Shown one piece after another: positions 1 to 14,268 of a stretch of 64,000 nucleotides of DNA. The stretch spans positions 143,201-207,200 of the forward strand of contig NZ_CANLRL010000004.1 of NCBI RefSeq assembly GCF_947493595.1, in the 5' to 3' direction. This stretch comes from an uncultured Shimia sp. GTDB lineage: Bacteria > Pseudomonadota > Alphaproteobacteria > Rhodobacterales > Rhodobacteraceae. Numbering within the stretch: position 1 is the first letter of the stretch; every line of letters starts with the position of its first letter. The translations under genes and the position numbers were made by a program. The notes under the pieces were generated by a model. That model did not search any database. It saw nothing but the letters and a program-made list of their open reading frames with translations, and had not been told where the DNA came from.

Positions 1-240
1 ATCGAAAGTGACGATTATCACTTCCTGACAGGGTTGGCGCGAGACGGGCAGTTCATTGTGGGCGCGGTTGAGGAAACCTTTGAGGAACCGTTGGCTTTGG
101 GGTGGTTCAAAAAAATCCCGCTCAAGGCTCCGATTACCTGGAACATCTGCGCTGTGCGCAAGCGTGGTGAGAGCTCGCCAGCACTTGAGGCGTTCTGGCG
201 AGCGCTTGAGAGATATGCGGTGAACCCGGTTGCCGCTTAG
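1..240 (+). CDS. LysR-family transcriptional regulator, C-terminal part (5' truncated by window edge)
   Basis: Frame is open from base 1 (IESDDYHFLTGLARDGQFIVG...). Ends WNICAVRKRGESSPALEAFWRAL, typical of a LysR substrate-binding domain C-terminus. Confidence 0.6.
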   Translation: MESDDYHFLTGLARDGQFIVGAVEETFEEPLALGWFKKIPLKAPITWNICAVRKRGESSPALEAFWRALERYAVNPVAA

Positions 241-1160
241 GAGGTCTGCTCCAGATATTGCAGGCAGCCTTCGAGCGCGGCGGCATCGTCGGTGATCAAG
301 CTGATCGGAAAGGTTGCCGGGTCCACGATGCCATGGGCGTCGCGGGTGAGCTCTTCCATAAAGTCAGGCAAGGCCGCGGAGGTCAGCACGCCGCGGGAGG
401 CGGAGCCGGCAAAGGCCACGCCGTCGCGCGGCATATATTGCAGGATCATGGCTTGCGTCAGGCGGCCCAAGGCGCGGGCAAAAAGGCGCACAGTGCGGGT
501 GGCGTCGTTGCAGCCGTTGGCAAAGCCGTCAACGATGTCTTTGCCGCCCTTGCGTTGACCGCTGACCACCTGATGCAGGCGTTCCAGACCACGGCCGCAG
601 AAGCAGTCTTCGTAGGTGACAAAGACGTCAGCGCCGTCGCCAAGCTCATCGCGCAGCAGTTTGCCAACGGAGTAGGGCAGTTCGGCGTGGCCAAGTTCGG
701 CCTCCATGGCGGTTAGACCGCCACGGGCGTTGCGGCGGGTGGGGCTGACGTTGAAGCCGGTGCCCATGCCAGCCACCAGCGCTTGACCATTTGTCGGTTC
801 GTGTTTGGTGCCGCAGACCGGATCGGTTGAAATGCGCGCCAGCGCGTAGCCCAGAGCGGAGAGATCGTTGATCAACTCTGCATGGGGCGCGCCGGTTTGA
901 TTGCGCAGGTTTTCCACGCTGAGGAACCAGTCGCGGTTGGTCAACTCGCCTTCGCCGGAATGCACGGGACCGGCGATAGCGATGCACACCCCGGCGAGGT
1001 CGCCGGGGATGGTTTTTTCAAGATAAGCAGCAAGCACGGCGTCAAAGCTATCGTAGTCATCATTGGAGGCGCGCATCACACTTTCAATGCGCACACCTGT
1101 GGCATCCGCCAGAGCCAGGCGTGTGTTTGTGCCACCGATGTCACCTACTAAGTACGTCAT
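237..1160 (-). CDS. glk: Glucokinase
   Basis: LVGDIGGTNTRLALA ATP-binding motif, IAGPV, INDLSA, GMGTGF, EAELGH. ATG at 1160 preferred over the ORF-track start. Confidence 0.9.
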   Translation of the reverse strand: MTYLVGDIGGTNTRLALADATGVRIESVMRASNDDYDSFDAVLAAYLEKTIPGDLAGVCIAIAGPVHSGEGELTNRDWFLSVENLRNQTGAPHAELINDLSALGYALARISTDPVCGTKHEPTNGQALVAGMGTGFNVSPTRRNARGGLTAMEAELGHAELPYSVGKLLRDELGDGADVFVTYEDCFCGRGLERLHQVVSGQRKGGKDIVDGFANGCNDATRTVRLFARALGRLTQAMILQYMPRDGVAFAGSASRGVLTSAALPDFMEELTRDAHGIVDPATFPISLITDDAAALEGCLQYLEQTS

Positions 1161-1214
1161 AAACCGCAACTTTCTTCTTCTGAGTCAATTCGTTGGTTCG
1201 TCTATCGAATTAAT

Positions 1215-1979
1215 TCAGGTTTGAACAGGCACGCCTTCGGGCTTTTTGCCAAGGATGATCATGCTCAGCAAATCGTCGTCGGTGACGTCGTTCACATCCA
1301 CGGTGCCAACCAGTTGACCGTTCTTCATCACCGAGGCGCGATCGCAGAGTTCCATGACATCGTGGATGTCGTGGCTGATCAGGAAAATGCCGATGCCTTG
1401 GGCTTTGAGCTGCTGAATGAGCTCGGAGACCATTTGGGTCTCATGCGGGCCGAGGGCGGCGGTGGGTTCGTCCATGATCAGGATCTTGGCGTCGAAATAC
1501 ACGGCGCGGGCAATGGCTACGGACTGGCGCTGACCGCCCGAAAGCGCAGAGACTGGCTCGGCGAACTTTTGGAAGTTCGGGTTGAGCTTGCCCATGATTT
1601 TGCGCGTCTCGGCTTCCATGGCGTCGTCGTTAACCGTGCCCAGAGGTGTGGTGAGTTCTCGACCCAGGAAGAGGTTGGACGCCGCATCAAGGTTATCGGC
1701 CAGCGCAAGTGTCTGGTAGATGGTCTCGATGTTGTATTTGCGGGCGTCGCGCGGGTTGTTGATCTCCGCCTTTTCACCGTTGATGTAGATCTCGCCGCCG
1801 TCACCCTGATAGGCGCCGGAGAGGATCTTGATCAGGGTGGATTTGCCCGCGCCATTGTGGCCCAGAAGGCCGACCACTTCGCCTGGCATGAGATCGACGG
1901 AGACATGGTCCACCGCTTTGATCCCGCCAAAGGAGATGTGGATGTCGCGCATTTCCACGAGAGGGGTTTGCTTGTCCAT
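1215..1979 (-). CDS. xylG: Sugar (xylose/glucose) ABC transporter ATP-binding protein, single domain
   Basis: Walker [17 protein letters not shown] signature, ILIMDEPT; operonic with the permease and binding protein. Confidence 0.88.
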
Positions 1980-1990
1980 GATGTTTCTCC

Positions 1991-3256
1991 TTATGCGCCG
2001 GTGCGGCGGCGGTAGACGATGTCGACCCAGACCGCGAAGACCAGAACCACACCCACAACGATGTTTTGCAGCGGCGCGTCAACACCCACGGAGGCCATGC
2101 CGGATTGCAAAGATTGCATGATCAGCGCGCCAATCACGGCGCCATAGATGGTGCCAGCACCGCCAGAGAGCGCGGTACCGCCAATCACGGCAGCAGCGAT
2201 CACGCGCAGTTCGTCCAACGTGCCGAGACCCACATCCACCGCATTCAGGCGGGCGGAGGCGATGATCGAGGCGATGCCGGTCAAAGCGCCCATCAGCGCG
2301 AAGATTTTCACGGTCAAGAAGCGCGTGTTGATGCCGGAGAGCTCTGCGGCCTCAGGGTTGCCGCCGGTGGCGTAGATGTAGCGGCCAAAACGGGTGCGAC
2401 GGGCGATGATGGTCATCACAATCGCGACGGCCAGCAGGATCACCACCGGGATGGCCACACCGTGGTTCCAGACCATGCCGTCGGTGTATTCGATGCCTTG
2501 GGCCTTGGTGATGCGTTTCATCGCGCCTTTGGGGATTGGGTAGCTGTTCATGATCGACACAAACAGAAGGATGCCGCCGGCGGCGATGGCCATGAGGATG
2601 CCCTCGGCCCAGGCGGGTTTCACCGCAAAACCATGGGAAGCTTTGTTGCGGCGGCTGAGCAGCATGAAGCCCACAGCGACCAGGGCGGCAATGATGCCAA
2701 AGACCCAGCTGAGTGTTTCGCCCAATGTACCCTCAGCGCCGCCGCCCAGTAGTCGGAAAGTTGGGTCCAGTGGGGCTTGGGTTTGGCCCTTGGTGACCCA
2801 CCACATGGCGCCGCGATAGACAAGGAAGCCACCGAGGGTCACGATGAAGGCGGGCACGGTCAGGTAGCCGATGATGTAGCCTTGGAAGGCGCCAAGCACG
2901 GCGCCCATGAAAATGGCGAAGATCACGGCGATGATCCAGATCGACCAGTGGCCAAGGCCCACCACGTCTGGCAGCCATTGCACTTGCAGGGCGGCGGTGG
3001 TCATGCCGATGAAGCCGAGCATTGACCCAACGGAGAGGTCGATGTGGCGGGTCACAATGACAAACACCATGCCAGTGGCCATGACGGCAACAGAGGCAGT
3101 TTGCACCGAGACGTTGAAAAAGTTTCGAGGGGAGAGGAAGCGGCCGTCGGTGAAGACGCCAAAGACAATCCAGATCACCACAAGCGCGCCGATCATGCCA
3201 AGCAGGCGCGGGTCGAGGCCCAGCTTGTTGATCAGGGTTTTGGCTTGGTTTTGCAT
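1991..3256 (-). CDS. xylH: Sugar ABC transporter permease (XylH/RbsC family)
   Basis: Multiple TM segments, [45 protein letters not shown]. Likely start MQNQAK at 3256. Confidence 0.9.
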
Positions 3257-3399
3257 TGTGCGGTCCCTTTTTGGTTCGCGCGGATTGAGACACCTCACCC
3301 AGTCTGCGCGGTGGAGGCCGCTTCAGTCAAAGGTGCTCAAATCTTAGGGGAGTGGGGAAATTGGGTGCCCCCCCGCCAGTGGCGGAAGGGCAGGTGTGT

Positions 3400-4413
3400 T
3401 TACTGACACGCCGCGTTGGAAGAGCCCGCGCAGAGCACGTCTTTCTCGATCCAGCCTGCGTCCAGAACTGTGTTCAGATTGTCGGCTGTCACCGGCACTG
3501 GTGCCAAGAACATGGAGTTCAACGTGGTGCCTGCTGGGGAGGTCCACTCAGCGGAGCCTTCCACGGCGTTGCCGGAGGCCAGGGCGACGGCGATTTCGCC
3601 GGCCGCAGCACCCAGAGCGCGCGCATCTTTCCAAACGGAAACAGTCTGCGTGCCCATGGCCACACGGTTCAGCGCAGCGTGGTCACCGTCTTGACCAGAC
3701 ACTGGAATGCCTTCCATGCCCTGTGCGGTCAGAGCAGCAACAACACCACCGGCGGTGCCGTCGTTAGACGCAATCACAGCGTCAACTTTGTTGTCAGCCG
3801 CGGTCAGGATCTGCTCCATGTTGCGCTGGGCGTTGGCCGGAACCCAGCCATCGGTGTAGGCTTCGCCGACAATTTTGATGTCGCCTGCGTCAATCGCGGC
3901 CTGGATGATTTCCTGCTGACCACCGCGCAGGAAGTCTGCGTTTGGATCGGTTGGGGAGCCTTTGATCATCACGTAATTGCCTTTTGGCATTGCTGCCAGA
4001 ACGGCGCGGGCTTGCATGCGGCCCACTTCGACGTTGTCAAAGGTCAGGTAAAACGCGCGGCTGTCCTCAATGAGGCGGTCATAGGCGATCACAGGGATTT
4101 CTTCGTCGGCGGCTGCCTGTACGGCTGGGCCAACAGCGGAGGCGTCCTGTGCCAGAATGATCAGCGCGTCGGCGCCTTGAGCGATCAGGCTTTCGATGTC
4201 GGAAAGCTGCTTGGCTGAGGAGCTCTGCGCGTCAGCGGAGATGTATTTGGCGCCAGCGGCGTCCAGCGCGCCTTTGATGGCGGCTTCGTCAGTTTTCCAG
4301 CGCTCTTCCTGGAAGTTGGACCAGCTTACGCCGATGACCAGATCGTCTGCCCAGACTGCGGTGCTTAGGAAAGCGCCGGCGATAACAGCCGTCGCGGATG
4401 CAAAAAGTTTCAT
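3400..4413 (-). CDS. xylF: D-xylose ABC transporter periplasmic binding protein
   Basis: Signal peptide; SWSNFQEERWKTDEA, IAYDRLI, FDNVEVG, SGQDGD, TVSVWKD motifs of the XylF family. Confidence 0.9.
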   Translation of the reverse strand: MKLFASATAVIAGAFLSTAVWADDLVIGVSWSNFQEERWKTDEAAIKGALDAAGAKYISADAQSSSAKQLSDIESLIAQGADALIILAQDASAVGPAVQAAADEEIPVIAYDRLIEDSRAFYLTFDNVEVGRMQARAVLAAMPKGNYVMIKGSPTDPNADFLRGGQQEIIQAAIDAGDIKIVGEAYTDGWVPANAQRNMEQILTAADNKVDAVIASNDGTAGGVVAALTAQGMEGIPVSGQDGDHAALNRVAMGTQTVSVWKDARALGAAAGEIAVALASGNAVEGSAEWTSPAGTTLNSMFLAPVPVTADNLNTVLDAGWIEKDVLCAGSSNAACQ

Positions 4414-4491: not shown

Positions 4492-4512
4492 TAAATTTGT
4501 AAATCAAATTAA
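4492..4512. promoter_or_regulatory. Predicted XylR (ROK) operator between divergent xylF and xylR
   Basis: TAAATTTG-TAAAT-CAAATTAA, an inverted repeat with a 5-nt spacer; matches the site upstream of xylB at 15/16 half-site positions. Confidence 0.7.
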
Positions 4513-4621: not shown

Positions 4622-5815
4622 ATGTCTGTGAATCAACGAGAAATTGGGCGGCGTAAGCTGCTGGCAGAAATTCGCAGGCAGCAGCGTGTCCCGCGCATTG
4701 ACCTGAGCGAGCTGACCGGAATCAGCCGCGCAACCGTGACAACCATCACCGCCGAGTTGCTCCGCGAAGGGTTGATTGAAGAAGTCACAAGCGACCTTGG
4801 CGAGAAAGATTCGAAGCGGGGACGTCCCAAGGTGGATCTGAAGATTCGCGGTGCGGCGCGGCTGATCGCAGGGGCAAAAATCTCCAACAAGACGGTGTCT
4901 TTGGTGCTGCTCGATTTTGAAGGTACACAATTGGCCGCCCATGAAGCGGATCTGGAGACGGCGGTCTTGCCTGCCGAAGACATGGCGGAAGTACTGTCCG
5001 GACTTGTCGAGACGTTGGCGCGCAAGATTGGCCTGTCGCGGGCAGATGTGGCGGGGTTTGGTTTGGGTATCGCTGGTGTGGTCGATGCGCCGCGCGGTTT
5101 TGTGCATTGGTCGCCGTCTTTGACCAGCCGCAACGTGCAGTTTGGTGACGTGCTGGAGCGGGTGCTGGGCATTCCGGTGTTTTTGGACAACGATGCCAAC
5201 CTTGTGGCGATGGCCGAGAAGAGCTTTGGTCTTGGACAGGGGCACAGCGATTTTATTGTGGTGACCATTGAGAGTGGTGTCGGTATGGGCATCGTAATCA
5301 ATAATGAGATTTACCGGGGGACGCGGGGCTGTGGCGCAGAATTTGGTCACACCAAAGTGCATCTAGAGGGGGCGCTTTGTCGTTGTGGGCAGCGAGGGTG
5401 CCTGGAGGCCTATGTGGCGGACTACGCGCTGACGCGTGAAGCCATGTTGGCCAGTGGCGAAGCCGCCGAGCGGCAAGTTGAGGATATTTTGCGCACGGCC
5501 AAAGAGGGCGAAGCCGTGGCTGCGTCTATTGTGAACCGGGCCGGGCGGATGTTTTCCATGGGGCTGGCCAACATCGTGAACATTTTTGACCCTGAGTTGA
5601 TCATTTTGGCGGGCGAACAAATGCAGGCCAGCCACCTTTATGCGGAAGAGGTGATTGACGGTATGCGCAAGCTGATTGTGCAGGTCGACAAAGCCCCGCC
5701 GGAGGTGGTGGTACACAAGTGGGGCAACCTGATGTGGGCCCGAGGAGCAGCGGCCTATGCACTTGAAAATGTGTCGGAAAATGCGCTCGTGGAGTTGGCG
5801 GATAATGTGGCTTAA
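4622..5815 (+). CDS. xylR: ROK-family transcriptional repressor of the xylose locus
   Basis: N-terminal HTH (LSELTGISRATVTTITAELL...RGRP), ROK core LDNDANL, GVGMGI, AEFGH, Zn motif CRCGQRGCLE. Confidence 0.88.
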   Translation: MSVNQREIGRRKLLAEIRRQQRVPRIDLSELTGISRATVTTITAELLREGLIEEVTSDLGEKDSKRGRPKVDLKIRGAARLIAGAKISNKTVSLVLLDFEGTQLAAHEADLETAVLPAEDMAEVLSGLVETLARKIGLSRADVAGFGLGIAGVVDAPRGFVHWSPSLTSRNVQFGDVLERVLGIPVFLDNDANLVAMAEKSFGLGQGHSDFIVVTIESGVGMGIVINNEIYRGTRGCGAEFGHTKVHLEGALCRCGQRGCLEAYVADYALTREAMLASGEAAERQVEDILRTAKEGEAVAASIVNRAGRMFSMGLANIVNIFDPELIILAGEQMQASHLYAEEVIDGMRKLIVQVDKAPPEVVVHKWGNLMWARGAAAYALENVSENALVELADNVA

Positions 5816-7346
5816 GGGCGCAAGTGCATTGGCACTATTGATGGCAAGTAATGCGCAGGCAGAAGTGCGATTTGCATCAGTGGACGTTGCGGAGCATGTT
5901 TATGACGGCGGCTGGGAATTTTACGTCGGCGGTGGTGTGGCAGCGTTTGATTGCAGCGGTGATGGCTTGCCGGAGCTGGTGGTGGCGGGCGGGGAAAACC
6001 CGCCGATGCTGCTGCGCAACCAGAGTTCCCATGGCGGGGCGGTGACCTTTGAGGAGGACACGCCCGATGCCTTGATGATGCCCGATACTACGGGGTTTTA
6101 CCCGCTTGATATTGATGGCGACGACCGGCTCGATCTTGTTGCGTTGCGTGTGGGGGAGAACCGCCTTCTGAAAGGTGGCGAAGAGTGTCGTTTTGAGCCT
6201 ATGGATGTGCCGGGGTTTGACGGGGGCAATGCTTGGACCACGGCGTTTTCTGCCACTTGGGAGCGGCAGGATGCGCTGCCGACATTGGCGTTTGGCAATT
6301 ACGTGGATCGTGACGATCCCAAAGGGCCGTTTGAGGCTTGTGACGAGAATGATTTGTTCCGGGCCTCTGGCGAGGGGTATGCGCATGCCACGTTGACGCC
6401 GGGGTTTTGCCCGTTGTCGATCTTGTTTTCCGACTGGGGCCGCTTGGGCCGTTCGGATTTACGGATGAGCAATGACCGCCATTACTATGTGAAAGGTGGC
6501 GCGGAGCAGCTTTGGGCGATGGAGGCGACGCCGCGGCTTTATGGGGAGGCGGATGGCTGGGCCACGCATATGTTGTGGGGCATGGGCATTGCGCAGCGTG
6601 ATCTGGACTTTGACGGCAAGGCGGAGGTGTTTTTGTCGTCGATGGGCGATCAGCGGTTGATGAAACGTGTGAGCGCGGAGGCCCCGACGTTTGAAGATGT
6701 GCCTTTTGAGATGGGCACCTCGGCGCATCGGCCATACACCGGTGGCGACGGGCGGCCCTCAACCGGCTGGCACATCAGTTTTGGCGATGTGGACAACGAC
6801 GGGCTGGATGATGTGTTCATATCCAAAGGCAATGTGCAGCAAATGCCGGGCGCGGCGATGGAAGACCCCAACAATCTGTTGATTCAGCAGGCCGACGGAA
6901 CATTTGCTGAGCTGGGCGACGTAGCTGGGATCGCCACATTGGCGCGCAGCCGTGGGGCAGCGTTGGTGGATATGAACCACGATGGGTTGCTGGACCTGGC
7001 AGTGGTAAACCGACGGGCACCGTTGGAGGTTTATCAAAACGTCACTGAAAGCACGGGAAATTGGGTGGCTTTGACCTTGATGGGGAAAGAGGCCAACAGT
7101 CAGGCCGTGGGGGCCTTTATTGAGGTGAAAGTGGGCGACCAAGTGCACCTACGGGAAATCACCGTGGGTGGCGGTCACGCCGGAGGTGTATCCGGGCCGC
7201 AGCATTTTGGGCTGGGCGATGCGGAGACCGTTGAAGTGCGCGTGCGCTGGCCGGATGGCACGCAGGGCGATTGGATCGAGGTGCCGGTAAATGGCAGCTG
7301 GCGGGTGTGGTCCGAAGGGCCGGTGACGGTGCTGTCGGCGTACTGA
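5805..7346 (+). CDS. Exported CRTAC1-like protein (FG-GAP/VCBS beta-propeller plus ASPIC/UnbV domain)
   Basis: Signal peptide MWLKGASALALLMASNAQA. Repeats DCSGDGLPEL, DIDGDDRLDL, DLDFDGKAEV, DVDNDGLDDV, DMNHDGLLDL. C-terminal AVGAFIEV...GGGHAGG...HFGLG...VRWPDG. ATG overlaps the xylR stop by 11 nt. Confidence 0.85.
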   Translation: MWLKGASALALLMASNAQAEVRFASVDVAEHVYDGGWEFYVGGGVAAFDCSGDGLPELVVAGGENPPMLLRNQSSHGGAVTFEEDTPDALMMPDTTGFYPLDIDGDDRLDLVALRVGENRLLKGGEECRFEPMDVPGFDGGNAWTTAFSATWERQDALPTLAFGNYVDRDDPKGPFEACDENDLFRASGEGYAHATLTPGFCPLSILFSDWGRLGRSDLRMSNDRHYYVKGGAEQLWAMEATPRLYGEADGWATHMLWGMGIAQRDLDFDGKAEVFLSSMGDQRLMKRVSAEAPTFEDVPFEMGTSAHRPYTGGDGRPSTGWHISFGDVDNDGLDDVFISKGNVQQMPGAAMEDPNNLLIQQADGTFAELGDVAGIATLARSRGAALVDMNHDGLLDLAVVNRRAPLEVYQNVTESTGNWVALTLMGKEANSQAVGAFIEVKVGDQVHLREITVGGGHAGGVSGPQHFGLGDAETVEVRVRWPDGTQGDWIEVPVNGSWRVWSEGPVTVLSAY

Positions 7347-7356
7347 AAAAGCCGCG

Positions 7357-7380
7357 TGGATCAGTTGGACAGCTGATCCA
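7357..7380. terminator. Hairpin at the convergence of the propeller and di-heme enzyme genes
   Basis: TGGATCAG-8 nt-CTGATCCA, overlapping the di-heme gene stop; a 5-T run follows 6 nt later on the minus strand. Confidence 0.4.
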
Positions 7381-8683
7381 TGGGCAGTCCGGAGGGTACC
7401 GACTCTGGCACTCCAAGGCGGCCTTGAATGGCGTCGTAGTCCGTGAGGCTTTCGAGGAAGGCGAGGATCTGCGCGACCTCCTTATCGGTGAGGTCAGTCG
7501 GCGAAAGTTCGTTGGCGGCTGCGATTTCGATCACTTCAGGTTCGTCCGTCATCAATTTGAAATCTGTATCAAATTTTCCATCGGAATAGGTGGTGTGGGC
7601 CGCTACATAGGCTTTGAGCGAGGCCACCGGATCGAGGTGATGCCTGACCATGGCTTCCAGGGAGGTGTAGGCCCCGTTATGGCCATAAGGCGCGGTCTGC
7701 GTGATGTTGCGCAGGGAGGGCGTGCGAAAGCGGTAGAAGTCTTCGTCTTGGCCGGTGACGCGGCCACGGCCGACGTCGCGGTTGTGGTTTTCAAACGGTG
7801 CCGCTTTGCCCGGGCCGATCTGTGGCAGCGCGATGGCGTGGAAGCCGTGGTTGGTCTGGAATTGGCCGGAATGGCAGGTGCCGCATTGGGCTTTGCCGTA
7901 GAAAAGGTCCAGGCCAGCGGCGGCATCAGCGGTGAGTGGCGTGCCGTCGCGCAGGTACGCGTCAAAGGCGGAGGCATCCGCGCGCCATTCAAAGGCAATG
8001 AAGGCGGCCAATGCGTTGGCGATGTGGTGGAACTTGATGGGTTCCTCTGCGCCAATCACATCGTCAAAGGCAGCGCGGTAGGCGGGGATGGCTTCGACCC
8101 GTTTGGCAAGGATGTCCCATGCGCCGCCTTCGCCGGTGAGTTGGCCGAGACGCACGGCTTGCGAGACGTCGTTTTCGGAATAGTGACCGGCCATTTCGTC
8201 GCCAGAGAGCACCGGGAACATGGCTTGTGCGGCAAGGGCGTTGTCAAAGCCCATCTCCATCTCGCTTCCTAAAGGGGTGCGGATGCCGGAGGGGCGGGAG
8301 GGGTCGTCTTCGAGGCGGCCATCGTGGAAAAAGACTGTGAATTCGGTGGCGCCGAGGTTCCACAGCGCGGGGGCGTTGCGGGGGATGCGGTTTTCGGGCG
8401 GGTTTGAGGTGTCGATTTTGCGCTCTAGCCCGAGGCCGGTGGCGCCGTCGCCAAGGCCGAGGGAGACGCCATCCGACGTGCCCAGATCGGGGTGGTGGCA
8501 AGTGGCGCAGGCGACGCTGCGGTTGCCGGACAGGATCGGATCGTAGAACAGTTGCCAGCCCAGCTCGACCTCCGTCACGTCCTGCGCCGGGAAGATGGCG
8601 TCCGCCTTGGGCAGCGGTGAGGCGCTGGCACCGGTTGCCAGAATGGCGGGCAGGAAAGCGGCTGTGAGCATCAAGGGGCGCAT
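7361..8683 (-). CDS. Exported di-heme c-type protein, bacterial cytochrome c peroxidase/MauG superfamily, atypical residues
   Basis: Signal peptide MRPLMLTAAFLPAILATGASA. Two CxxCH motifs (CATCH, CGTCH), LGWQLFYDPILS, RNAPAL, FRTPSLRN, TAPYGHNG, LAFLESLTD. Confidence 0.88.
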   Translation of the reverse strand: MRPLMLTAAFLPAILATGASASPLPKADAIFPAQDVTEVELGWQLFYDPILSGNRSVACATCHHPDLGTSDGVSLGLGDGATGLGLERKIDTSNPPENRIPRNAPALWNLGATEFTVFFHDGRLEDDPSRPSGIRTPLGSEMEMGFDNALAAQAMFPVLSGDEMAGHYSENDVSQAVRLGQLTGEGGAWDILAKRVEAIPAYRAAFDDVIGAEEPIKFHHIANALAAFIAFEWRADASAFDAYLRDGTPLTADAAAGLDLFYGKAQCGTCHSGQFQTNHGFHAIALPQIGPGKAAPFENHNRDVGRGRVTGQDEDFYRFRTPSLRNITQTAPYGHNGAYTSLEAMVRHHLDPVASLKAYVAAHTTYSDGKFDTDFKLMTDEPEVIEIAAANELSPTDLTDKEVAQILAFLESLTDYDAIQGRLGVPESVPSGLPMDQLSN

Positions 8684-8776
8684 GGCGGGTCTTTCATTTA
8701 GAAAAGCCCTCCGCGCAGGAGAATATGCGCGAAGGGCCAGTGTATCTTGGCTCAATAACGATTTTGAAACAAGATA

Positions 8777-10081
8777 TTACACAAAGCGGTTCACGTAGTT
8801 TTCCAAAATCTCCTGACGGCCGGATTTGGGTGCCGGGTTGATCTTTCCGCTCATCACGTCGTCGAATGTGCCGTCCAAATCGCCGGCTAGCATGGCTTTG
8901 GCCGCGTCTGTGTCCCAACCGGCGTAGCGCTCGGCCAGGGCATCTTCGAGACCACCGTCCTCGATCATTGCGGCGGCGGCTTTCAGGCCGCGGGCGCAGA
9001 CGTCCATGGCGCCGATGTGGCCTGCGATCAGGTCTTCGGCGTCCAAGGACTGGCGGCGCAGTTTGGCGTCAAAGTTGGTGCCGCCGGTTTTCAGGCCGCC
9101 GTCTTTGAGGATGTGGTAGTAGGCCAGCGCAACTTCGGGCACCGAGTTCGGGAACTGGTCGGTGTCCCAGCCGGATTGGTAGTCGTTGCGGTTCATGTCG
9201 ATCGAGCCGAGCACACCAAGGGCGGCAGCGGTGGCGATCTCATGTTCAAAGCTGTGACCGGCGAGGATGGCGTGGCCCTGCTCGAGGTTGAGTTTGACCT
9301 CGTTTTCCAAGCCGTACTTCTTGAGGAAGCCATAGCAGGTGGCGGCGTCAAAGTCGTATTGATGCTTGGAGGGTTCTTGCGGTTTTGGCTCCACCAAGAT
9401 GGTGCCTTCGAAGCCAATCTTGTGTTTGTAGTCCACCACCATGTTTAGGAAGCGGCCCATGTTGTCGAGTTCACGGCCCATGTCGGTGTTGAGCAGGGTT
9501 TCATAACCCTCGCGGCCGCCCCAGAGCACGTAGTTTTCGCCGCCCAAACGTTTGGTGGCGTCCATGCAGGTTTTCACGGTGGCGGCGGAATAGGCGAAGA
9601 CTTCCGGGTCCGGGTTGGTGGACGCACCACTCATCCAGCGGCGGTGGCTGAACATATTGGCGGTACCCCAGAGCAATTTCACGGCGCGTGTGCTCATTTT
9701 TTCTTCAAAGTAATCAATGATCTCTTCGAAGTTCTTCAGGCTTTCGGCAAAGCTGTCACCCTCAGGGCGCACATCGGCGTCGTGCCAGCAGAAGTAAGGT
9801 TGTTGCAGGATGTCAAACATTTCAAAGGCAGCGTCGGCTTTGACTTTGGCCATGTCCATGCGGGTTTGCGGGTGCCACGGGCGCTCAAAGGTTTGGCCGC
9901 CAAAGGGGTCGCCGCCTTCCCAGGCAAAGCTGTGCCAATAGGCCACGGCAAAGCGCAGGTGGTCTTCCATGCGTTTGCCCATGACAACCTCATCAGGGTT
10001 GTAGTGGTGGAAGGCCATCGGGTTGGTGCTTTCCGGCCCTTCATATTGGGCGGGGGCGATGTTTTTGAAGAAATCGGTCAT
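8777..10081 (-). CDS. xylA: Xylose isomerase (class II)
   Basis: [47 protein letters not shown]. Confidence 0.97.
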
Positions 10082-11532
10082 TGTGTCAGGGCCTTTATGC
10101 CGGGGTACAGGGTGACGAAGTGGGCGTAGGCCTCTTCGTAGGCGTCGCGCAGATCACTGCGGGGGGAAACGGTTGTGGCGATCTCTGGCCGGGTCATGAC
10201 GGTCTCAGGATCGGCTTTGGTGGCGGCGCAAATGGCCAGCCGGGCGGCGCCAAGGGCCGCGCCAAATTCGCCTGCTTTGGGCAGGGAAATGGGCAGGTTC
10301 AGCAGCGTGGCGATGAGCTCGACCCAATAGGGTGACTGGCTGCCGCCGCCGATGGCAATCAGGCTTTGCAGGTCCGCGCCGGTGGATTTCAACGCTTCGA
10401 GATTATCGCGTAGAGCGAAACTCACACCTTCTAGCACGGCTTGGGTGAGGGCGGCGGGGCCGGTGTCGATGTCGATGTTCAGGAAGGCGCCGCGCATGGT
10501 GGCGTCGTTGTGTGGGGTGCGCTCGCCGGACAGATAGGGCAGGAAGCGCATGGCGCCGGGGCCGTTGATGCTGTCGCCCAAGAGCTTGGTCAGGTTGGCT
10601 GGGCTTTCTTGCAGGTTGCGGGAGAGCCAGTTGAGGCTGTCGGTGGCGGCAAGGATCACGCCCATCTGATACCAGCGATTGGGAACGGCGTGGCAGAAGG
10701 TATGCACGGCGCTTTCCGGTTTGGGGGCGTAGGCGTCGCGGCCAGTGAGCAGCACGCCGGAGGTGCCTAGCGAGACAAAGCCGTCTCCCTCGTTGAGCGC
10801 GCCGATCCCACACGCGGCGGCGGCGTTGTCTCCGGCACCTGCGGCGACAATCACGCCTTTGGGCAGGCCTAGTTCGGCGGCGATGTCATCGCGCACGGTG
10901 CCAATGGCGTCGGAGCCTTCAAACAGGTCCGGCATCTGATCACGGCGCACGCCGGAGGCGGTGAGCAAGGTGTCAGACCAGTCGCGGGTGCCAACGTCAA
11001 GCCAACTGGTGCCAGCGGAGTCGGACATGTCAGAGGCATAGACACCGGTGAGCCAGAAGTTCAGGAAGTCTTTGGGCAGCAGGACTTTGGCGGTTTTGGC
11101 AAATATGTCCGGCTCGTTTTCGGCGACCCAGGCCACTTTGGGGGCGGTGAAGCCAGGGAAGACGATGTTGCCGGACAGGTCTCGCACCTGTTCGGTGGTG
11201 TCGAACTTGGCGGCTTGCGCGGCGGAGCGGGTGTCGTTCCACATCATGCAGGGGCGCAAGGGGGCGCCGTTTTTGTCCAGCAAATTGGCGCCGTGCATGT
11301 GACCGGACACGCCGATGCCTTTGATAGCGGCGACCTCAGTAGGGTGGTCGGCCTTTAGCGCGGCAAAGACCGCTTTGGTGGCCGTGATCCAGTCCGATTG
11401 CAGCTGTTCGCTCCACCCTGAATGCGGTCGCGCCGTGTCCACGGCGGCCTCTTTTGCGCCGATCACACATTGGGACGCGTCAATCAGCAGGGCGCGTACT
11501 CCAGACGTGCCCAGATCCAATCCCACAAACAT
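10078..11532 (-). CDS. xylB: Xylulokinase
   Basis: [48 protein letters not shown]; overlaps the xylA start (ATGA). Confidence 0.96.
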
Positions 11533-11558: not shown

Positions 11559-11579
11559 TTAATTTGTGCCTCAAATTAA
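11559..11579. promoter_or_regulatory. Predicted XylR operator upstream of xylB
   Basis: Perfect TTAATTTG-TGCCT-CAAATTAA inverted repeat 27 nt upstream of the xylB start. Confidence 0.72.
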
Positions 11580-11726
11580 TTTGAGGATCAAACTAGAAAT
11601 TGCCTACTCGAAGATTTTTCCACTGGAGCGTGGATGGTGGAGATAAGTGTTTTTTTCGAAAAATCGAATGTAAACAAAGAGTTCGTCGTCTATTGGGCGC
11701 GACAGAAGAAAATTGCGAGTGAGCGC

Positions 11727-11793: not shown

Positions 11794-14268
11794 ATGACGG
11801 CGCATGTGTTGAATTTCCAGCTGGACGGGCTGAGCTGTGCGGGCTGCGTGAACCGCGCGCAGAAGGCGATGGCCGCTGTGGAAGGGGTGCAGGACGCAAG
11901 TGTGAACTTGGCGGACACCTCGGCGCGGGTGGCGTTTGAGGATGACACCGTGCGCGACGGTGTGATTGCGGCGCTGAAGTCGGCGGGCTATCCGGCGCGG
12001 GAGGCTACGGTGACGCTGGATGTGGGGGGCATGACCTGTGCAGGCTGTGTCCGCCGCGCGGAGGCCGCGATGGCGGCGGGCGAGGGCGTGCTGACGGCGG
12101 AGATCAACTTTGCCAGCGAGAGCGCAACCGTGCGTTATCTGGAAGGCGCGATCACGGCCAACCAGATTGCCGCGTTGAGCACGCGGGCGGGCTATCCGGC
12201 GCGGGTGCCGGAGGAGGGCGTGCCAGAAGACATCGCAGATCGGAAAGAGGAAGAGGCCAAGGCGGCCAAGCGGCGGGTGCTGCTGGCGGTGGTGCTGGCG
12301 TTTCCGGTGTTTTGCATCGAAATGGGCGGACATATGGTGCCCGCGTTTCATCATTGGCTGATGGCCAATGTGGGGATGCAAAACAGCTATCTGTTTCAGT
12401 TTGTGCTGACCTCGATCCTGTTGGTCGGGCCAGGGCGGGAGTTTTACGCCAAGGGTATTCCTGCGCTACTGAAAGGCGCGCCGGAGATGAACTCGCTGGT
12501 CGCCTTGGGCACGGGGGCGGCTTATCTGTTCTCCGTCGTGTCGACCTTTGCGCCGGGGCTGCTGCCTGCGGGCACCGCCAATGTGTATTTTGAAGCGGCG
12601 GCGGTGATTGTAGTGCTGATCCTGGCGGGGCGCTGGATGGAAGCGCGGGCCAAGGGGCGCACCGGGGCGGCGATTGCCGAGCTTGTCGGCTTGCAGCCGC
12701 GCGTGGCGCAGGTGGAGCGTAAAGGCAAAGTATCCGAGGTGGCGATCGAAGAGGTGGCGGTGGGCGATGTGCTGCATCTGCGGCCCGGGGAGCGTGTGGC
12801 TGTGGATGGGCGTGTGCTGGATGGCAACTCCTTTGTGGATGAGGCGATGATTTCCGGTGAGCCGGTGCCAGTGGAGAAATCCGCAGGCGATGCGGTGATA
12901 GCGGGCACGGTGAATGGCGCCGGTGTCCTGCGCTATGAGGCGGAGCAGGTGGGGCGCGACACGATGCTGGCGCAGATCATCGACATGGTGCGTCAGGCGC
13001 AAGGGGCAAAGTTGCCGATCCAGAACCTGGTGGACCGGATCACGGCGGTGTTTGTGCCGGTGGTGATGGCGATTGCGGCGGCGACCTTTGTGGTCTGGAT
13101 GTTTGTGGGGCCGGAGCCGCGCCTGGGCTATTCGCTGGTGGCGGCGGTGGCGGTACTCATTATCGCTTGCCCCTGCGCCATGGGATTGGCCACGCCAACC
13201 TCGATTATGGTCGGGACGGGACGGGCGGCGCAGTTGGGCGTTTTGTTTCGCAAAGGTGACGCGCTGCAGGGTTTGCGGGACTGCGATGTGGTGGCGTTTG
13301 ACAAGACGGGCACGCTGACCCAAGGGGCGCCATCAGTGACCGATGTGGCATTGGCGGAAGGTTTTGACGAGGATGATGTGTTGGCGCGGGTGGCGTCGGT
13401 TGAGGGGCAATCCGAGCATCCGTTGGCGCGGGCGATGGTTGCTGAAGCTCAAGAACGTGGGCTGGACGTGGCAGCGTGTACGGAGCTTGAGGTGCGGGTT
13501 GGGCACGGGCTGATTGGCACTGTGGATGGCGCACAGGTGGCCGTAGGCGCGGCGCGGTTGATGTTGGCACTGGAGGTGCCTTTGGGTGGGTTTGAAGCGC
13601 TGGCGGTTGCGTTTGCCGAGGCAGGCAAGACGCCGATCTATGTGTCGGTGGACGGCACATTGGCCGCTGTGATTGCGGTGGCGGATGCGGTGAAACCAAA
13701 CTCGGCAGCAGCAATCAAAGCCCTTCATGGCATGGGCAAGACCGTGGCGATGATCTCCGGTGACACAGAACGCACGGCGCAGGCTTTGGCGCGGGAATTG
13801 GGCGTGGATCACGTGGTCGCAGAGGTCTTACCAGACGGTAAGGTTGCGGCGCTGGAGCAGTTGCGCGACACCGTTGGCAAGGTGGCCTTTGTCGGCGATG
13901 GCATAAACGACGCGCCCGCCCTGGCGGCGGCGGATGTGGGTATCGCCATTGGCACAGGCACGGATGTGGCGATTGAAGCGGCGGATGTGGTGTTGATGGC
14001 GGGCGACGTGGGGGGCGTTGTGACCGGGTTTGACCTGAGCCGCCGGGTGATGCGTAATATCAAAGAGAACCTGTTCTGGGCGTTTGGCTACAACGTGGCG
14101 CTGATCCCTGTGGCGGCGGGCATTTTGGTGCCCTTTGGCGGGCCCGCGCTGTCACCGATGTTGGGCGCCGGGGCGATGGCGCTCTCCAGCGTGTTTGTCC
14201 TGTCCAACGCGCTGCGGTTGCGGCGCATCCAGCCAGCCTTTCAGGCCAGCAAGAAAGAAGGTGTGTGA
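11794..14268 (+). CDS. copA: Copper-translocating P1B-type ATPase
   Basis: Two HMA domains (GLSCAGC, GMTCAGC), CPC, DKTGT, SEHP, GDGIND, YN and MxxSS Cu(I) transmembrane motifs. Confidence 0.95.
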   Translation: MTAHVLNFQLDGLSCAGCVNRAQKAMAAVEGVQDASVNLADTSARVAFEDDTVRDGVIAALKSAGYPAREATVTLDVGGMTCAGCVRRAEAAMAAGEGVLTAEINFASESATVRYLEGAITANQIAALSTRAGYPARVPEEGVPEDIADRKEEEAKAAKRRVLLAVVLAFPVFCIEMGGHMVPAFHHWLMANVGMQNSYLFQFVLTSILLVGPGREFYAKGIPALLKGAPEMNSLVALGTGAAYLFSVVSTFAPGLLPAGTANVYFEAAAVIVVLILAGRWMEARAKGRTGAAIAELVGLQPRVAQVERKGKVSEVAIEEVAVGDVLHLRPGERVAVDGRVLDGNSFVDEAMISGEPVPVEKSAGDAVIAGTVNGAGVLRYEAEQVGRDTMLAQIIDMVRQAQGAKLPIQNLVDRITAVFVPVVMAIAAATFVVWMFVGPEPRLGYSLVAAVAVLIIACPCAMGLATPTSIMVGTGRAAQLGVLFRKGDALQGLRDCDVVAFDKTGTLTQGAPSVTDVALAEGFDEDDVLARVASVEGQSEHPLARAMVAEAQERGLDVAACTELEVRVGHGLIGTVDGAQVAVGAARLMLALEVPLGGFEALAVAFAEAGKTPIYVSVDGTLAAVIAVADAVKPNSAAAIKALHGMGKTVAMISGDTERTAQALARELGVDHVVAEVLPDGKVAALEQLRDTVGKVAFVGDGINDAPALAAADVGIAIGTGTDVAIEAADVVLMAGDVGGVVTGFDLSRRVMRNIKENLFWAFGYNVALIPVAAGILVPFGGPALSPMLGAGAMALSSVFVLSNALRLRRIQPAFQASKKEGV

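Follow-up and report, generated by a model that had tools for sequence, protein, structure and literature searches.

The xylose locus of an uncultured Shimia species of the family Rhodobacteraceae (assembly GCF_947493595.1, contig NZ_CANLRL010000004.1) contains two genes for exported proteins that lie tail to tail between the regulator gene xylR and the isomerase gene xylA. One encodes a β-propeller protein of the CRTAC1 family, here termed PROP, and the other a di-heme protein of the CCP_MauG superfamily. The window analysed is the whole stretch of 64,000 nt between positions 143,201 and 207,200 of the contig, and coordinates are those of the window. The two genes form a conserved and co-inherited pair in the Rhodobacteraceae, and we consider that there is about an even chance that their products are two halves of a periplasmic redox module. 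The genes and features of the locus are as follows.

237–1169, minus strand: glk (glucokinase), directly after xylG
1215–1979, minus strand: xylG, of the ATP-binding cassette uptake system xylGHF for xylose (glucose and xylose in Ruegeria pomeroyi)
1991–3298, minus strand: xylH, of the same xylose uptake system
3400–4413, minus strand: xylF, of the same uptake system (Pfam Peripla_BP_4)
4494–4510: putative XylR operator AATTTGTAAATCAAATT, in the promoter region between the divergent genes xylF and xylR
4622–5815, plus strand: xylR, ROK-family repressor with an N-terminal winged helix (Pfam ROK 2.6e-57, HTH_24)
5805–7346, plus strand: PROP, exported CRTAC1-family protein with an FG-GAP calcium-loop β-propeller and a C-terminal UnbV_ASPIC β-sandwich
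7347–7360: 14 nt separating the stop codons of PROP and the convergent di-heme gene
7361–8683, minus strand: gene of the di-heme CCP_MauG-superfamily protein
8684–8776, minus strand: 93-nt spacer separating the xylA stop from the start codon of the di-heme gene (weak hairpin, 8707–8723)
8777–10081, minus strand: xylA, on the same strand as the di-heme gene and upstream of it (NCBIfam xylose isomerase, 714.8 bits)
10078–11532, minus strand: xylB, with FGGY kinase domains, upstream of and co-directional with the di-heme gene
11561–11577 and 11578–11594: two adjacent operator copies 5′ of xylB, AATTTGTGCCTCAAATT and AATTTGAGGATCAAACT respectively
11794–14268, plus strand: copA, copper-exporting P-type ATPase, divergent from xylB

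The start of PROP, an ATG, lies inside the 3′ end of xylR, and the two genes share 11 nt. The 14-nt gap in which PROP and the di-heme gene converge is too short to accommodate a terminator hairpin. A scan of the locus for promoters and terminators did no better than one of shuffled sequence, in which terminator-like sites were as common. The initial annotation had described this arrangement (tail to tail with a 14-nt gap, one gene translationally coupled to xylR, and the other about 90 nt after xylA), and each of its coordinates is correct (14, 11 and 93 nt). It had also noted that the window holds no other redox partner genes. The CxxCH motif occurs in the di-heme protein alone among the 49 longest non-overlapping open reading frames of the window, so that no other c-type cytochrome partner is present in this set, in agreement with that claim. 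The source organism is a Shimia, and the nearest homologues of the pair are Shimia proteins that are 89–95% identical. The chosen start codons agree with the lengths of the annotated homologues (513 aa for PROP and 436–440 aa for the di-heme protein), and both N-termini resemble Sec signal peptides when read by eye (MWLKGASALALLMASNAQA/EV and MRPLMLTAAFLPAILATGASA/SP).

PROP is a member of the CRTAC1/ASPIC-UnbV family, in which an FG-GAP calcium-loop propeller is followed by an UnbV_ASPIC domain. It matches the Pfam models FG-GAP_3 (2.4e-20, 73.3 bits), FG-GAP (42.9 bits) and UnbV_ASPIC (6.1e-15, 55.3 bits), all above their cut-offs, and its homologues are named ‘CRTAC1 family protein’ in the databases. 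The AlphaFold2 model (predicted local distance difference test, pLDDT, 89.1; predicted template modelling score 0.90) comprises a β-propeller and a C-terminal β-sandwich. The best fold match in the PDB is murine CRTAC1 (9etn; template modelling score 0.71, 21% identity), followed by the heads of integrin α chains, LGI1 and the sugar-converting enzyme aldos-2-ulose dehydratase (4a7k). PROP thus shares with mammalian CRTAC1 the calcium-loop propeller and the UnbV_ASPIC domain. In contrast to the mammalian protein it lacks the EGF-like tail, is periplasmic, is encoded in a sugar locus and is paired with redox enzymes. We know of no enzymology for mammalian CRTAC1, nor of a catalytic activity for any protein of the CRTAC1 family. 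Most of the conserved residues of PROP belong to the structural FG-GAP calcium loops. The genome encodes a second, much larger UnbV_ASPIC/FG-GAP protein outside the window (G000:C2:328020-328526, loci L006/L213, in a frame of ~1066 aa), beside which no di-heme or PAP2-like neighbour was detected.

The di-heme protein matches the Pfam family CCP_MauG (PF03150) with 4.6e-34 and 118.6 bits, against a cut-off of 25.6. The heme motifs are CATCHH (residues 59–64) and CGTCHS (267–272), and the AlphaFold2 model (pLDDT 75.7) has the generic fold of the bacterial cytochrome c peroxidases (CCPs), MauG and MbnH. In a profile search the closest solved structure is MbnH (6e1c; 126 bits, 1.3e-35), after which come canonical peroxidases, MauG and BthA, with the γ subunit of hydrazine synthase (HZS) as a marginal match only. 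Every curated subfamily model scores the protein below its cut-off. The best NCBIfam match is the His-Xaa-Ser-associated MauG-like model TIGR03981 (272.6 bits, below the cut-off of 340), and there are no radical-SAM/His-Xaa-Ser peptide genes among the genes of the locus. The models for MbnH (TIGR04039) and MauG (TIGR03791) give 121.3 and 115.9 bits against cut-offs of 362.85 and 443.85, respectively. Neither mau genes nor an MbnP-like gene are found at the locus, where the neighbours of the di-heme gene are xyl genes.

Two positions set the protein apart from MauG. His349, in the sequence LEAMVRHH (His348–His349), falls exactly on Tyr294 of MauG in phmmer alignments to the MauG chains, and its score is higher with the Y294H variant of MauG (3orv, 30.2 bits) than with the wild type (28.7 bits). 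H348 and H349 are both invariant across 50 homologues, in which Met is not conserved at the position of His349. The alignments to the peroxidases 3o5c and 4aal end one to two residues short of the Met ligand, and their extension places His349 there. His120 occupies the position of the inter-heme Trp, with the sequence ffHDGR aligned over qFWDGR of MacA in the profile alignment; the equivalent residue in MauG is Trp93. The FHDGR motif is present in 71 of 78 di-heme orthologues. The first heme retains a pocket region of peroxidatic type (P137, E141–M142). The second heme is predicted to be bis-His. In MauG, Tyr294 and Trp93 are the residues by which the bis-Fe(IV) oxidant is retained and relayed, and Y294H MauG is not known to form bis-Fe(IV) or to be active in the synthesis of tryptophan tryptophylquinone (TTQ). 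Because of the bis-His second heme and the His in place of the inter-heme Trp, we infer that the di-heme protein is neither a protein-maturing enzyme of the MauG bis-Fe(IV) type nor a canonical Met-ligated peroxidase.

The system of MauG and pre-methylamine dehydrogenase also comprises a periplasmic di-heme enzyme of the CCP_MauG fold encoded beside a dedicated protein partner, the heavy chain of methylamine dehydrogenase is a seven-bladed propeller, and the C-terminal extension of the di-heme protein aligns with MauG over ~97 residues. However, Tyr294 and Trp93 of MauG are replaced by His349 and His120, and the partner in Shimia is a propeller of the CRTAC1 type, with no small TTQ subunit and no mau genes. 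MbnH, which forms kynurenine in MbnP in the context of copper homeostasis, likewise has a neighbouring partner gene and is the closest solved structure. It differs in having Tyr where the second heme of the Shimia protein has a predicted axial His, and the Shimia locus has neither an MbnP-like gene nor a copper context, save for the adjoining copA. This gene adjoins the xyl locus in only a few other genera and is probably unconnected with the pair. BthA of Burkholderia is always encoded next to one exported partner, PhosA (PMC6405878). The window protein aligns with BthA over its full length (6nx0), but BthA has Tyr–His ligation and forms bis-Fe(IV), and PhosA is a purple acid phosphatase rather than a propeller.

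The closest published description of the His/His pattern is that of HZS γ, a CCP-like di-heme subunit in which His replaces the Trp and the second heme is bis-His, and which works in complex with a seven-bladed propeller; CRTAC1/FG-GAP genes occur in the HZS-like clusters of non-anammox bacteria in other phyla (PMC12758564). The sequence similarity to HZS γ is negligible, with a match of only 28.7 bits (5c2v_C) over the N-terminal (first) heme motif. The Shimia locus has no genes resembling those of the α or β subunits and no context of nitrogen metabolism, and the propeller of HZS β is not of the FG-GAP/UnbV type, unlike PROP. The canonical CCPs (MacA, CcpA and those of Pseudomonas and Nitrosomonas) share the CCP_MauG domain, the two CxxCH motifs, the fold and the periplasmic location. 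The Shimia protein is ~100 residues longer, has FHDGR for FWDGR, and probably has His at the site expected for the Met ligand.

The same genome encodes a paralogue of the di-heme protein outside the window (G000:C7:18401-19663, locus L002). It is 48% identical, with MHDGR and RHH motifs, and its gene adjoins those of a TRAP-type binding protein and a SEL1-repeat protein with no propeller nearby. Similar di-heme paralogues are present in many Rhodobacteraceae.

The conservation of the pair was analysed mostly within this family, using one genome for each of 201 genera of the Rhodobacteraceae. PROP is present in 120 of these, and in 72 of the 120 a di-heme gene lies within 2.5 kb of it, tail to tail in every case. 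The gaps between the matched ranges extend from −7 to ~500 nt, with a median near 50 and most of them between 10 and 100. The tree of PROP contains a clade A (87 rows), with xylR ahead of PROP and a convergent di-heme gene, and a clade B (~30 rows) that has neither the preceding xylR nor the convergent di-heme gene. A di-heme orthologue is found anywhere in the genome in 85 of 89 clade-A genomes, compared with 12 of the 112 others (odds ratio 177, a value that ignores phylogeny).

The two genes remain together while their surroundings change. The di-heme gene can stand behind xylBA (as in the window) or behind xylBA and an aldose epimerase gene (as in R. pomeroyi). In the commonest arrangement xylBA lies beyond xylFGH, and the di-heme gene stands alone, convergent on xylR–PROP. 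The DNA beyond such stand-alone di-heme genes differs between genera (49 loci) with the pair intact; no conserved gene is found upstream of them, any one neighbour being present in at most 9 of the 49 loci. In one further arrangement (L020) the pair is removed from all xyl genes, in another (L019, L082) the di-heme gene follows xylF and PROP follows xylHG, and in Fuscovulum blasticum PROP and the di-heme gene are co-directional with a gap of 55 nt. The pair also occurs outside the Rhodobacteraceae, in a metagenome-assembled genome (MAG) of Bauldia. It is thus well supported that the pairing goes beyond chance, and that the two genes are co-inherited and have stayed adjacent through several independent rearrangements.

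The two proteins are also found as a natural fusion. Protein P0326 (1159 aa) joins an FG-GAP/UnbV_ASPIC propeller to a di-heme domain that is 47% identical to the window protein and carries the motifs CASCHH, FFHDGR and AHH. It was found on three contigs from two samples, one of the contigs being 5 Mb long. Together with the co-directional genes of F. blasticum, this fusion points to a joint function of PROP and the di-heme protein. A second candidate fusion, P0275, was discounted, as it lies on a short Logan contig with a frameshift inside the propeller part. On the Logan contig L235 (3.6 kb) the frame of a PROP orthologue with an internal frameshift continues, with no stop in between, into a co-directional di-heme gene, which reflects either a recent fusion or a misassembly.

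Comparison of clade A with the clade that has no di-heme partner was used to look for a site of modification in PROP. Trp, Tyr and Cys residues that are invariant in PROP are numerous, and every conserved one is also kept in the clade without a di-heme partner; none is specific to the di-heme-associated clade A. The residues specific to clade A are H226, Q283, R381, R404, D180 and F176.

Outside clade A, PROP is accompanied by other partners. Among 208 loci with a PROP orthologue (a partly redundant sample) the gene next to PROP is a convergent CCP_MauG gene in 125, a PAP2-like gene in 40 and a DHOR-like gene in five; a di-heme gene lies within 6 kb in five more, and 32 have no partner. In 22 clade-B loci an exported PAP2-superfamily gene of ~440 aa is directly upstream of PROP and co-directional with it. 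The product has the motifs KX6RP, PSGH and SRX5H, and its NCBI name is ‘vanadium-dependent haloperoxidase’. The PAP2–PROP unit stands behind xylA or a ROK regulator gene in Hyphomicrobiales, Rhizobiaceae, Aestuariivirga, Mesorhizobium and a Variovorax MAG; examples of PAP2–PROP loci are L101, L116, L097 and L093 (Rhodobacteraceae clade B) and L189, L193, L197, L201, L207 and L210 (other orders). In other lineages (L027, L029, L128, L209 and L229) a di-heme gene of the DHOR/DUF1111 family, annotated as a ‘putative peroxidase’, is directly upstream of PROP, with one example of an xylR–DHOR–PROP string in which stop and start codons overlap. A parallel between the PAP2-like partner and the phosphatase partner of BthA was considered and rejected, PhosA being a purple acid phosphatase.

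The association of PROP with xylose genes is close. Of the 201 genomes, 115 have both PROP and xylA, five have PROP only, 21 xylA only and 60 neither. In 84 genomes the two are on one contig, and PROP is within 10 kb of xylA in 78 of these. A survey of gene neighbourhoods across the Rhodobacteraceae had been proposed in the initial annotation, and with the pair in 72 of the 120 PROP genera, the retention of the di-heme gene in clade A and the co-occurrence of PROP with xylA, the view of a conserved, co-inherited pair belonging to the xylose locus is borne out. Among 300 other Alphaproteobacteria a PROP orthologue is present in five, and three of these five have it co-directional inside xyl operons. 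A genome of another proteobacterial class has xylA–xylF–xylH–xylG–PROP–PAP2-like, all in one direction.

The palindrome AATTTG-N5-CAAATT occurs between xylF and xylR and, in two copies, 5′ of xylB, and the same motif is found upstream of xylB in 17 other loci. A position matrix derived from this operator motif finds a site 5′ of xylR in 82% of 87 loci, compared with 4% of random windows. As PROP overlaps xylR and an operator palindrome lies upstream of xylR, PROP is very probably controlled by XylR and translationally coupled to xylR. For the di-heme gene, induction by sugar is plausible only in loci where the gene comes after xylA, because the stand-alone di-heme genes are without a recognizable XylR operator. 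In the window it does so, 93 nt behind xylA and with the predicted operators upstream of xylB. The proposal in the initial annotation of a sugar-induced module is thus supported for PROP as far as its very probable control by XylR goes, and is less likely for the di-heme gene of the commonest architecture, at which no operator is recognized. In R. pomeroyi (L236) an aldose-1-epimerase gene (8039–9004) intervenes after xylA, and the 4 nt at its stop are shared with the start of the di-heme gene that follows, so that the di-heme gene is the fourth cistron of an xylB–xylA–epimerase string. In about 16 other genera the distance from xylA to PROP is 2.2–2.9 kb, consistent with an extra gene as in R. 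pomeroyi. The presence of an ordinary aldose-1-epimerase gene in the same operon makes it unlikely that PROP acts as a periplasmic mutarotase.

The xylFGH genes of R. pomeroyi (SPO0861-0863) have been shown to transport glucose and xylose (PMC10130141). The position of the glucokinase gene directly behind xylG in the window is consistent with the import of both sugars by R. pomeroyi XylFGH (PMC10130141).

The explanation that we prefer, with moderate confidence, is that of a conserved periplasmic redox module, attached to the XylR-controlled xylose locus in Rhodobacteraceae, of which PROP and the di-heme protein each form one half. It is well supported that PROP is made together with XylR, from overlapping genes behind an operator-bearing promoter. 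The two proteins would act together, probably as a periplasmic complex, in which PROP may serve as a calcium-stabilized binding or catalytic scaffold whose propeller binds the ligand, and the di-heme protein may supply peroxide-dependent or electron-transfer chemistry. The property common to the three partner families would most simply be the handling of peroxide or the generation of an oxidant. Since PROP has no clade-specific Trp, Tyr or Cys, the target is more likely to be a sugar-derived small molecule or glycan bound by the propeller than one of the propeller’s own residues. A broader proposal, made tentatively and rather unlikely, is that CRTAC1-type calcium propellers with an interchangeable peroxidase-type partner constitute a widespread H2O2-driven carbohydrate-active redox system. 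It would be an ‘auxiliary activity’ of a new type that, in the periplasm or on the cell surface, oxidizes sugars, releases them or conditions them, and that in Rhodobacteraceae has been wired into the XylR xylose regulon. Three kinds of partner would serve in such a system, namely CCPs of the His/His di-heme type, di-heme proteins of the DHOR type and PAP2 proteins resembling vanadium haloperoxidases, with the partner either encoded separately or fused to the propeller.

Several observations weigh against a common module of this kind. PROP and the di-heme gene are convergent and thus not co-transcribed, and a XylR operator is found at the stand-alone di-heme genes of the commonest architecture in 3% of 66 loci, which is the background level. 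The co-occurrence statistics ignore phylogeny, and the sampling is mostly of one family. About 15% of the PROP loci have no partner. An UnbV_ASPIC gene was next to a CCP_MauG gene in none of 21 other Pseudomonadota genomes with UnbV_ASPIC proteins, and at more distant CRTAC1-like loci in Pseudomonadota no di-heme or PAP2 neighbour was detected, which limits the pairing rule to the group of PROP orthologues rather than extending it to every FG-GAP protein. Lastly, the PAP2-like partner could be a phosphatase and not a haloperoxidase, in which case the shared peroxide property would fall.

Some of these points are what would be expected if there were no functional coupling at all, and the pair were a case of inherited synteny with the di-heme protein serving the periplasm generally, as a peroxidase or an electron carrier, and with PROP as an unrelated calcium-binding lectin or adhesin carried on the xylR transcript. 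Separate transcription of convergent genes, the stand-alone di-heme genes without an operator and the absence of adjacency in the 21 other genomes all accord with this, as do eight genomes with a di-heme orthologue and no PROP, and four clade-A genomes with PROP and no di-heme orthologue. We nevertheless regard it as improbable, given that the pair has outlasted at least five different rearrangements while its flanks changed, recurs in Bauldia, is retained almost completely in clade A and is fused in P0326, and that other clades of PROP have other peroxidase-type partners in the same operon. One clade-A locus from a genome without any di-heme orthologue (L013, genome G034) matches xylA only as two fragments, of which one is interrupted by a TAG, and xylB only in part, which suggests that its xylose locus is decaying. 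Proposals that do couple the two proteins differ in what each would contribute. PROP could be an H2O2-producing oxidase, for example of a sugar, with the di-heme, DHOR or haloperoxidase-like partner as a local sink or user of the peroxide. All three partner families are annotated as peroxide-using, and the fold search returns a propeller enzyme, aldos-2-ulose dehydratase. β-Propeller oxidases with peroxidase partners have a precedent; in Streptomyces the copper-radical oxidase GlxA is similarly paired with the peroxidase DtpA. An oxidase is nonetheless unlikely: no flavin, pyrroloquinoline quinone (PQQ) or copper-site signature is recognizable in PROP, its conservation is concentrated in the structural calcium loops, the family has no catalytic activity known to us, and a simple peroxide sink needs no fusion to its source.

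Oxidative maturation, as suggested in the initial annotation, would have a MauG- or MbnH-like di-heme enzyme oxidize a Trp, Tyr or Cys of the propeller to a protein-derived cofactor, making PROP a periplasmic aldose oxidoreductase. The tight pairing, the natural fusion, the wealth of invariant Trp, Tyr and Cys in PROP and the ranking of MbnH as the best profile match in the PDB speak for it, and a dedicated partner is the rule for the non-peroxidase members of the superfamily MauG, MbnH and BthA (PMC6405878). It is disfavoured by the same residues that distinguish the di-heme protein. His349 takes the place of the MauG tyrosine, as in the variant that outscores the wild type and that is not known to be active in maturation, and His120 takes that of the Trp used in hole hopping; with the MauG and MbnH models the protein falls well short of the cut-offs. 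The candidate Trp, Tyr and Cys residues of PROP are equally conserved where there is no di-heme partner, and three unrelated partner families that substitute for each other are unlikely to mature one and the same residue. We judge maturation to be distinctly unlikely on these grounds. If, on the other hand, the di-heme protein were purely an electron-transfer cytochrome linking a dehydrogenase-type propeller to the respiratory chain, in the manner of the quinohemoprotein sugar and alcohol dehydrogenases, the predicted bis-His ligation, which is typical of electron-transfer hemes, would be expected, and periplasmic sugar dehydrogenases are indeed β-propellers. This is very improbable in view of the peroxidatic-type pocket region kept at the first heme and the lack of PQQ-type motifs in PROP; moreover, the alternative PAP2-like partner cannot carry electrons.

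Both protein families have been catalogued before, and MauG, MbnH and BthA are established cases of di-heme enzymes that have a partner of their own. In the literature searched we found nothing that links xylose loci with FG-GAP/UnbV/CRTAC1 proteins, or FG-GAP/UnbV proteins with haloperoxidase-like partners; the sole published hint found is the CRTAC1-family gene inside HZS-like clusters (PMC12758564).

The xylose loci of the roseobacters and other Alphaproteobacteria, including that of R. pomeroyi (SPO0858 to SPO0860, with SPO0858 as the di-heme gene and SPO0859 as the expected orthologue of PROP), thus contain two conserved genes for exported proteins that are outside any pathway scheme. The di-heme enzyme defines a natural His/His branch of the CCP/MauG superfamily, with hallmarks that are those abolishing bis-Fe(IV) chemistry in engineered MauG. 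CRTAC1/UnbV proteins are also conserved in enediyne gene clusters, and a single propeller family that recruits three partners of peroxide type would provide a testable entry to the function of bacterial CRTAC1/UnbV proteins. An arrayed mutant library of R. pomeroyi exists, so that the question is directly testable in that organism. The pair may point to an unrecognized oxidative step in the use of sugars by marine bacteria.

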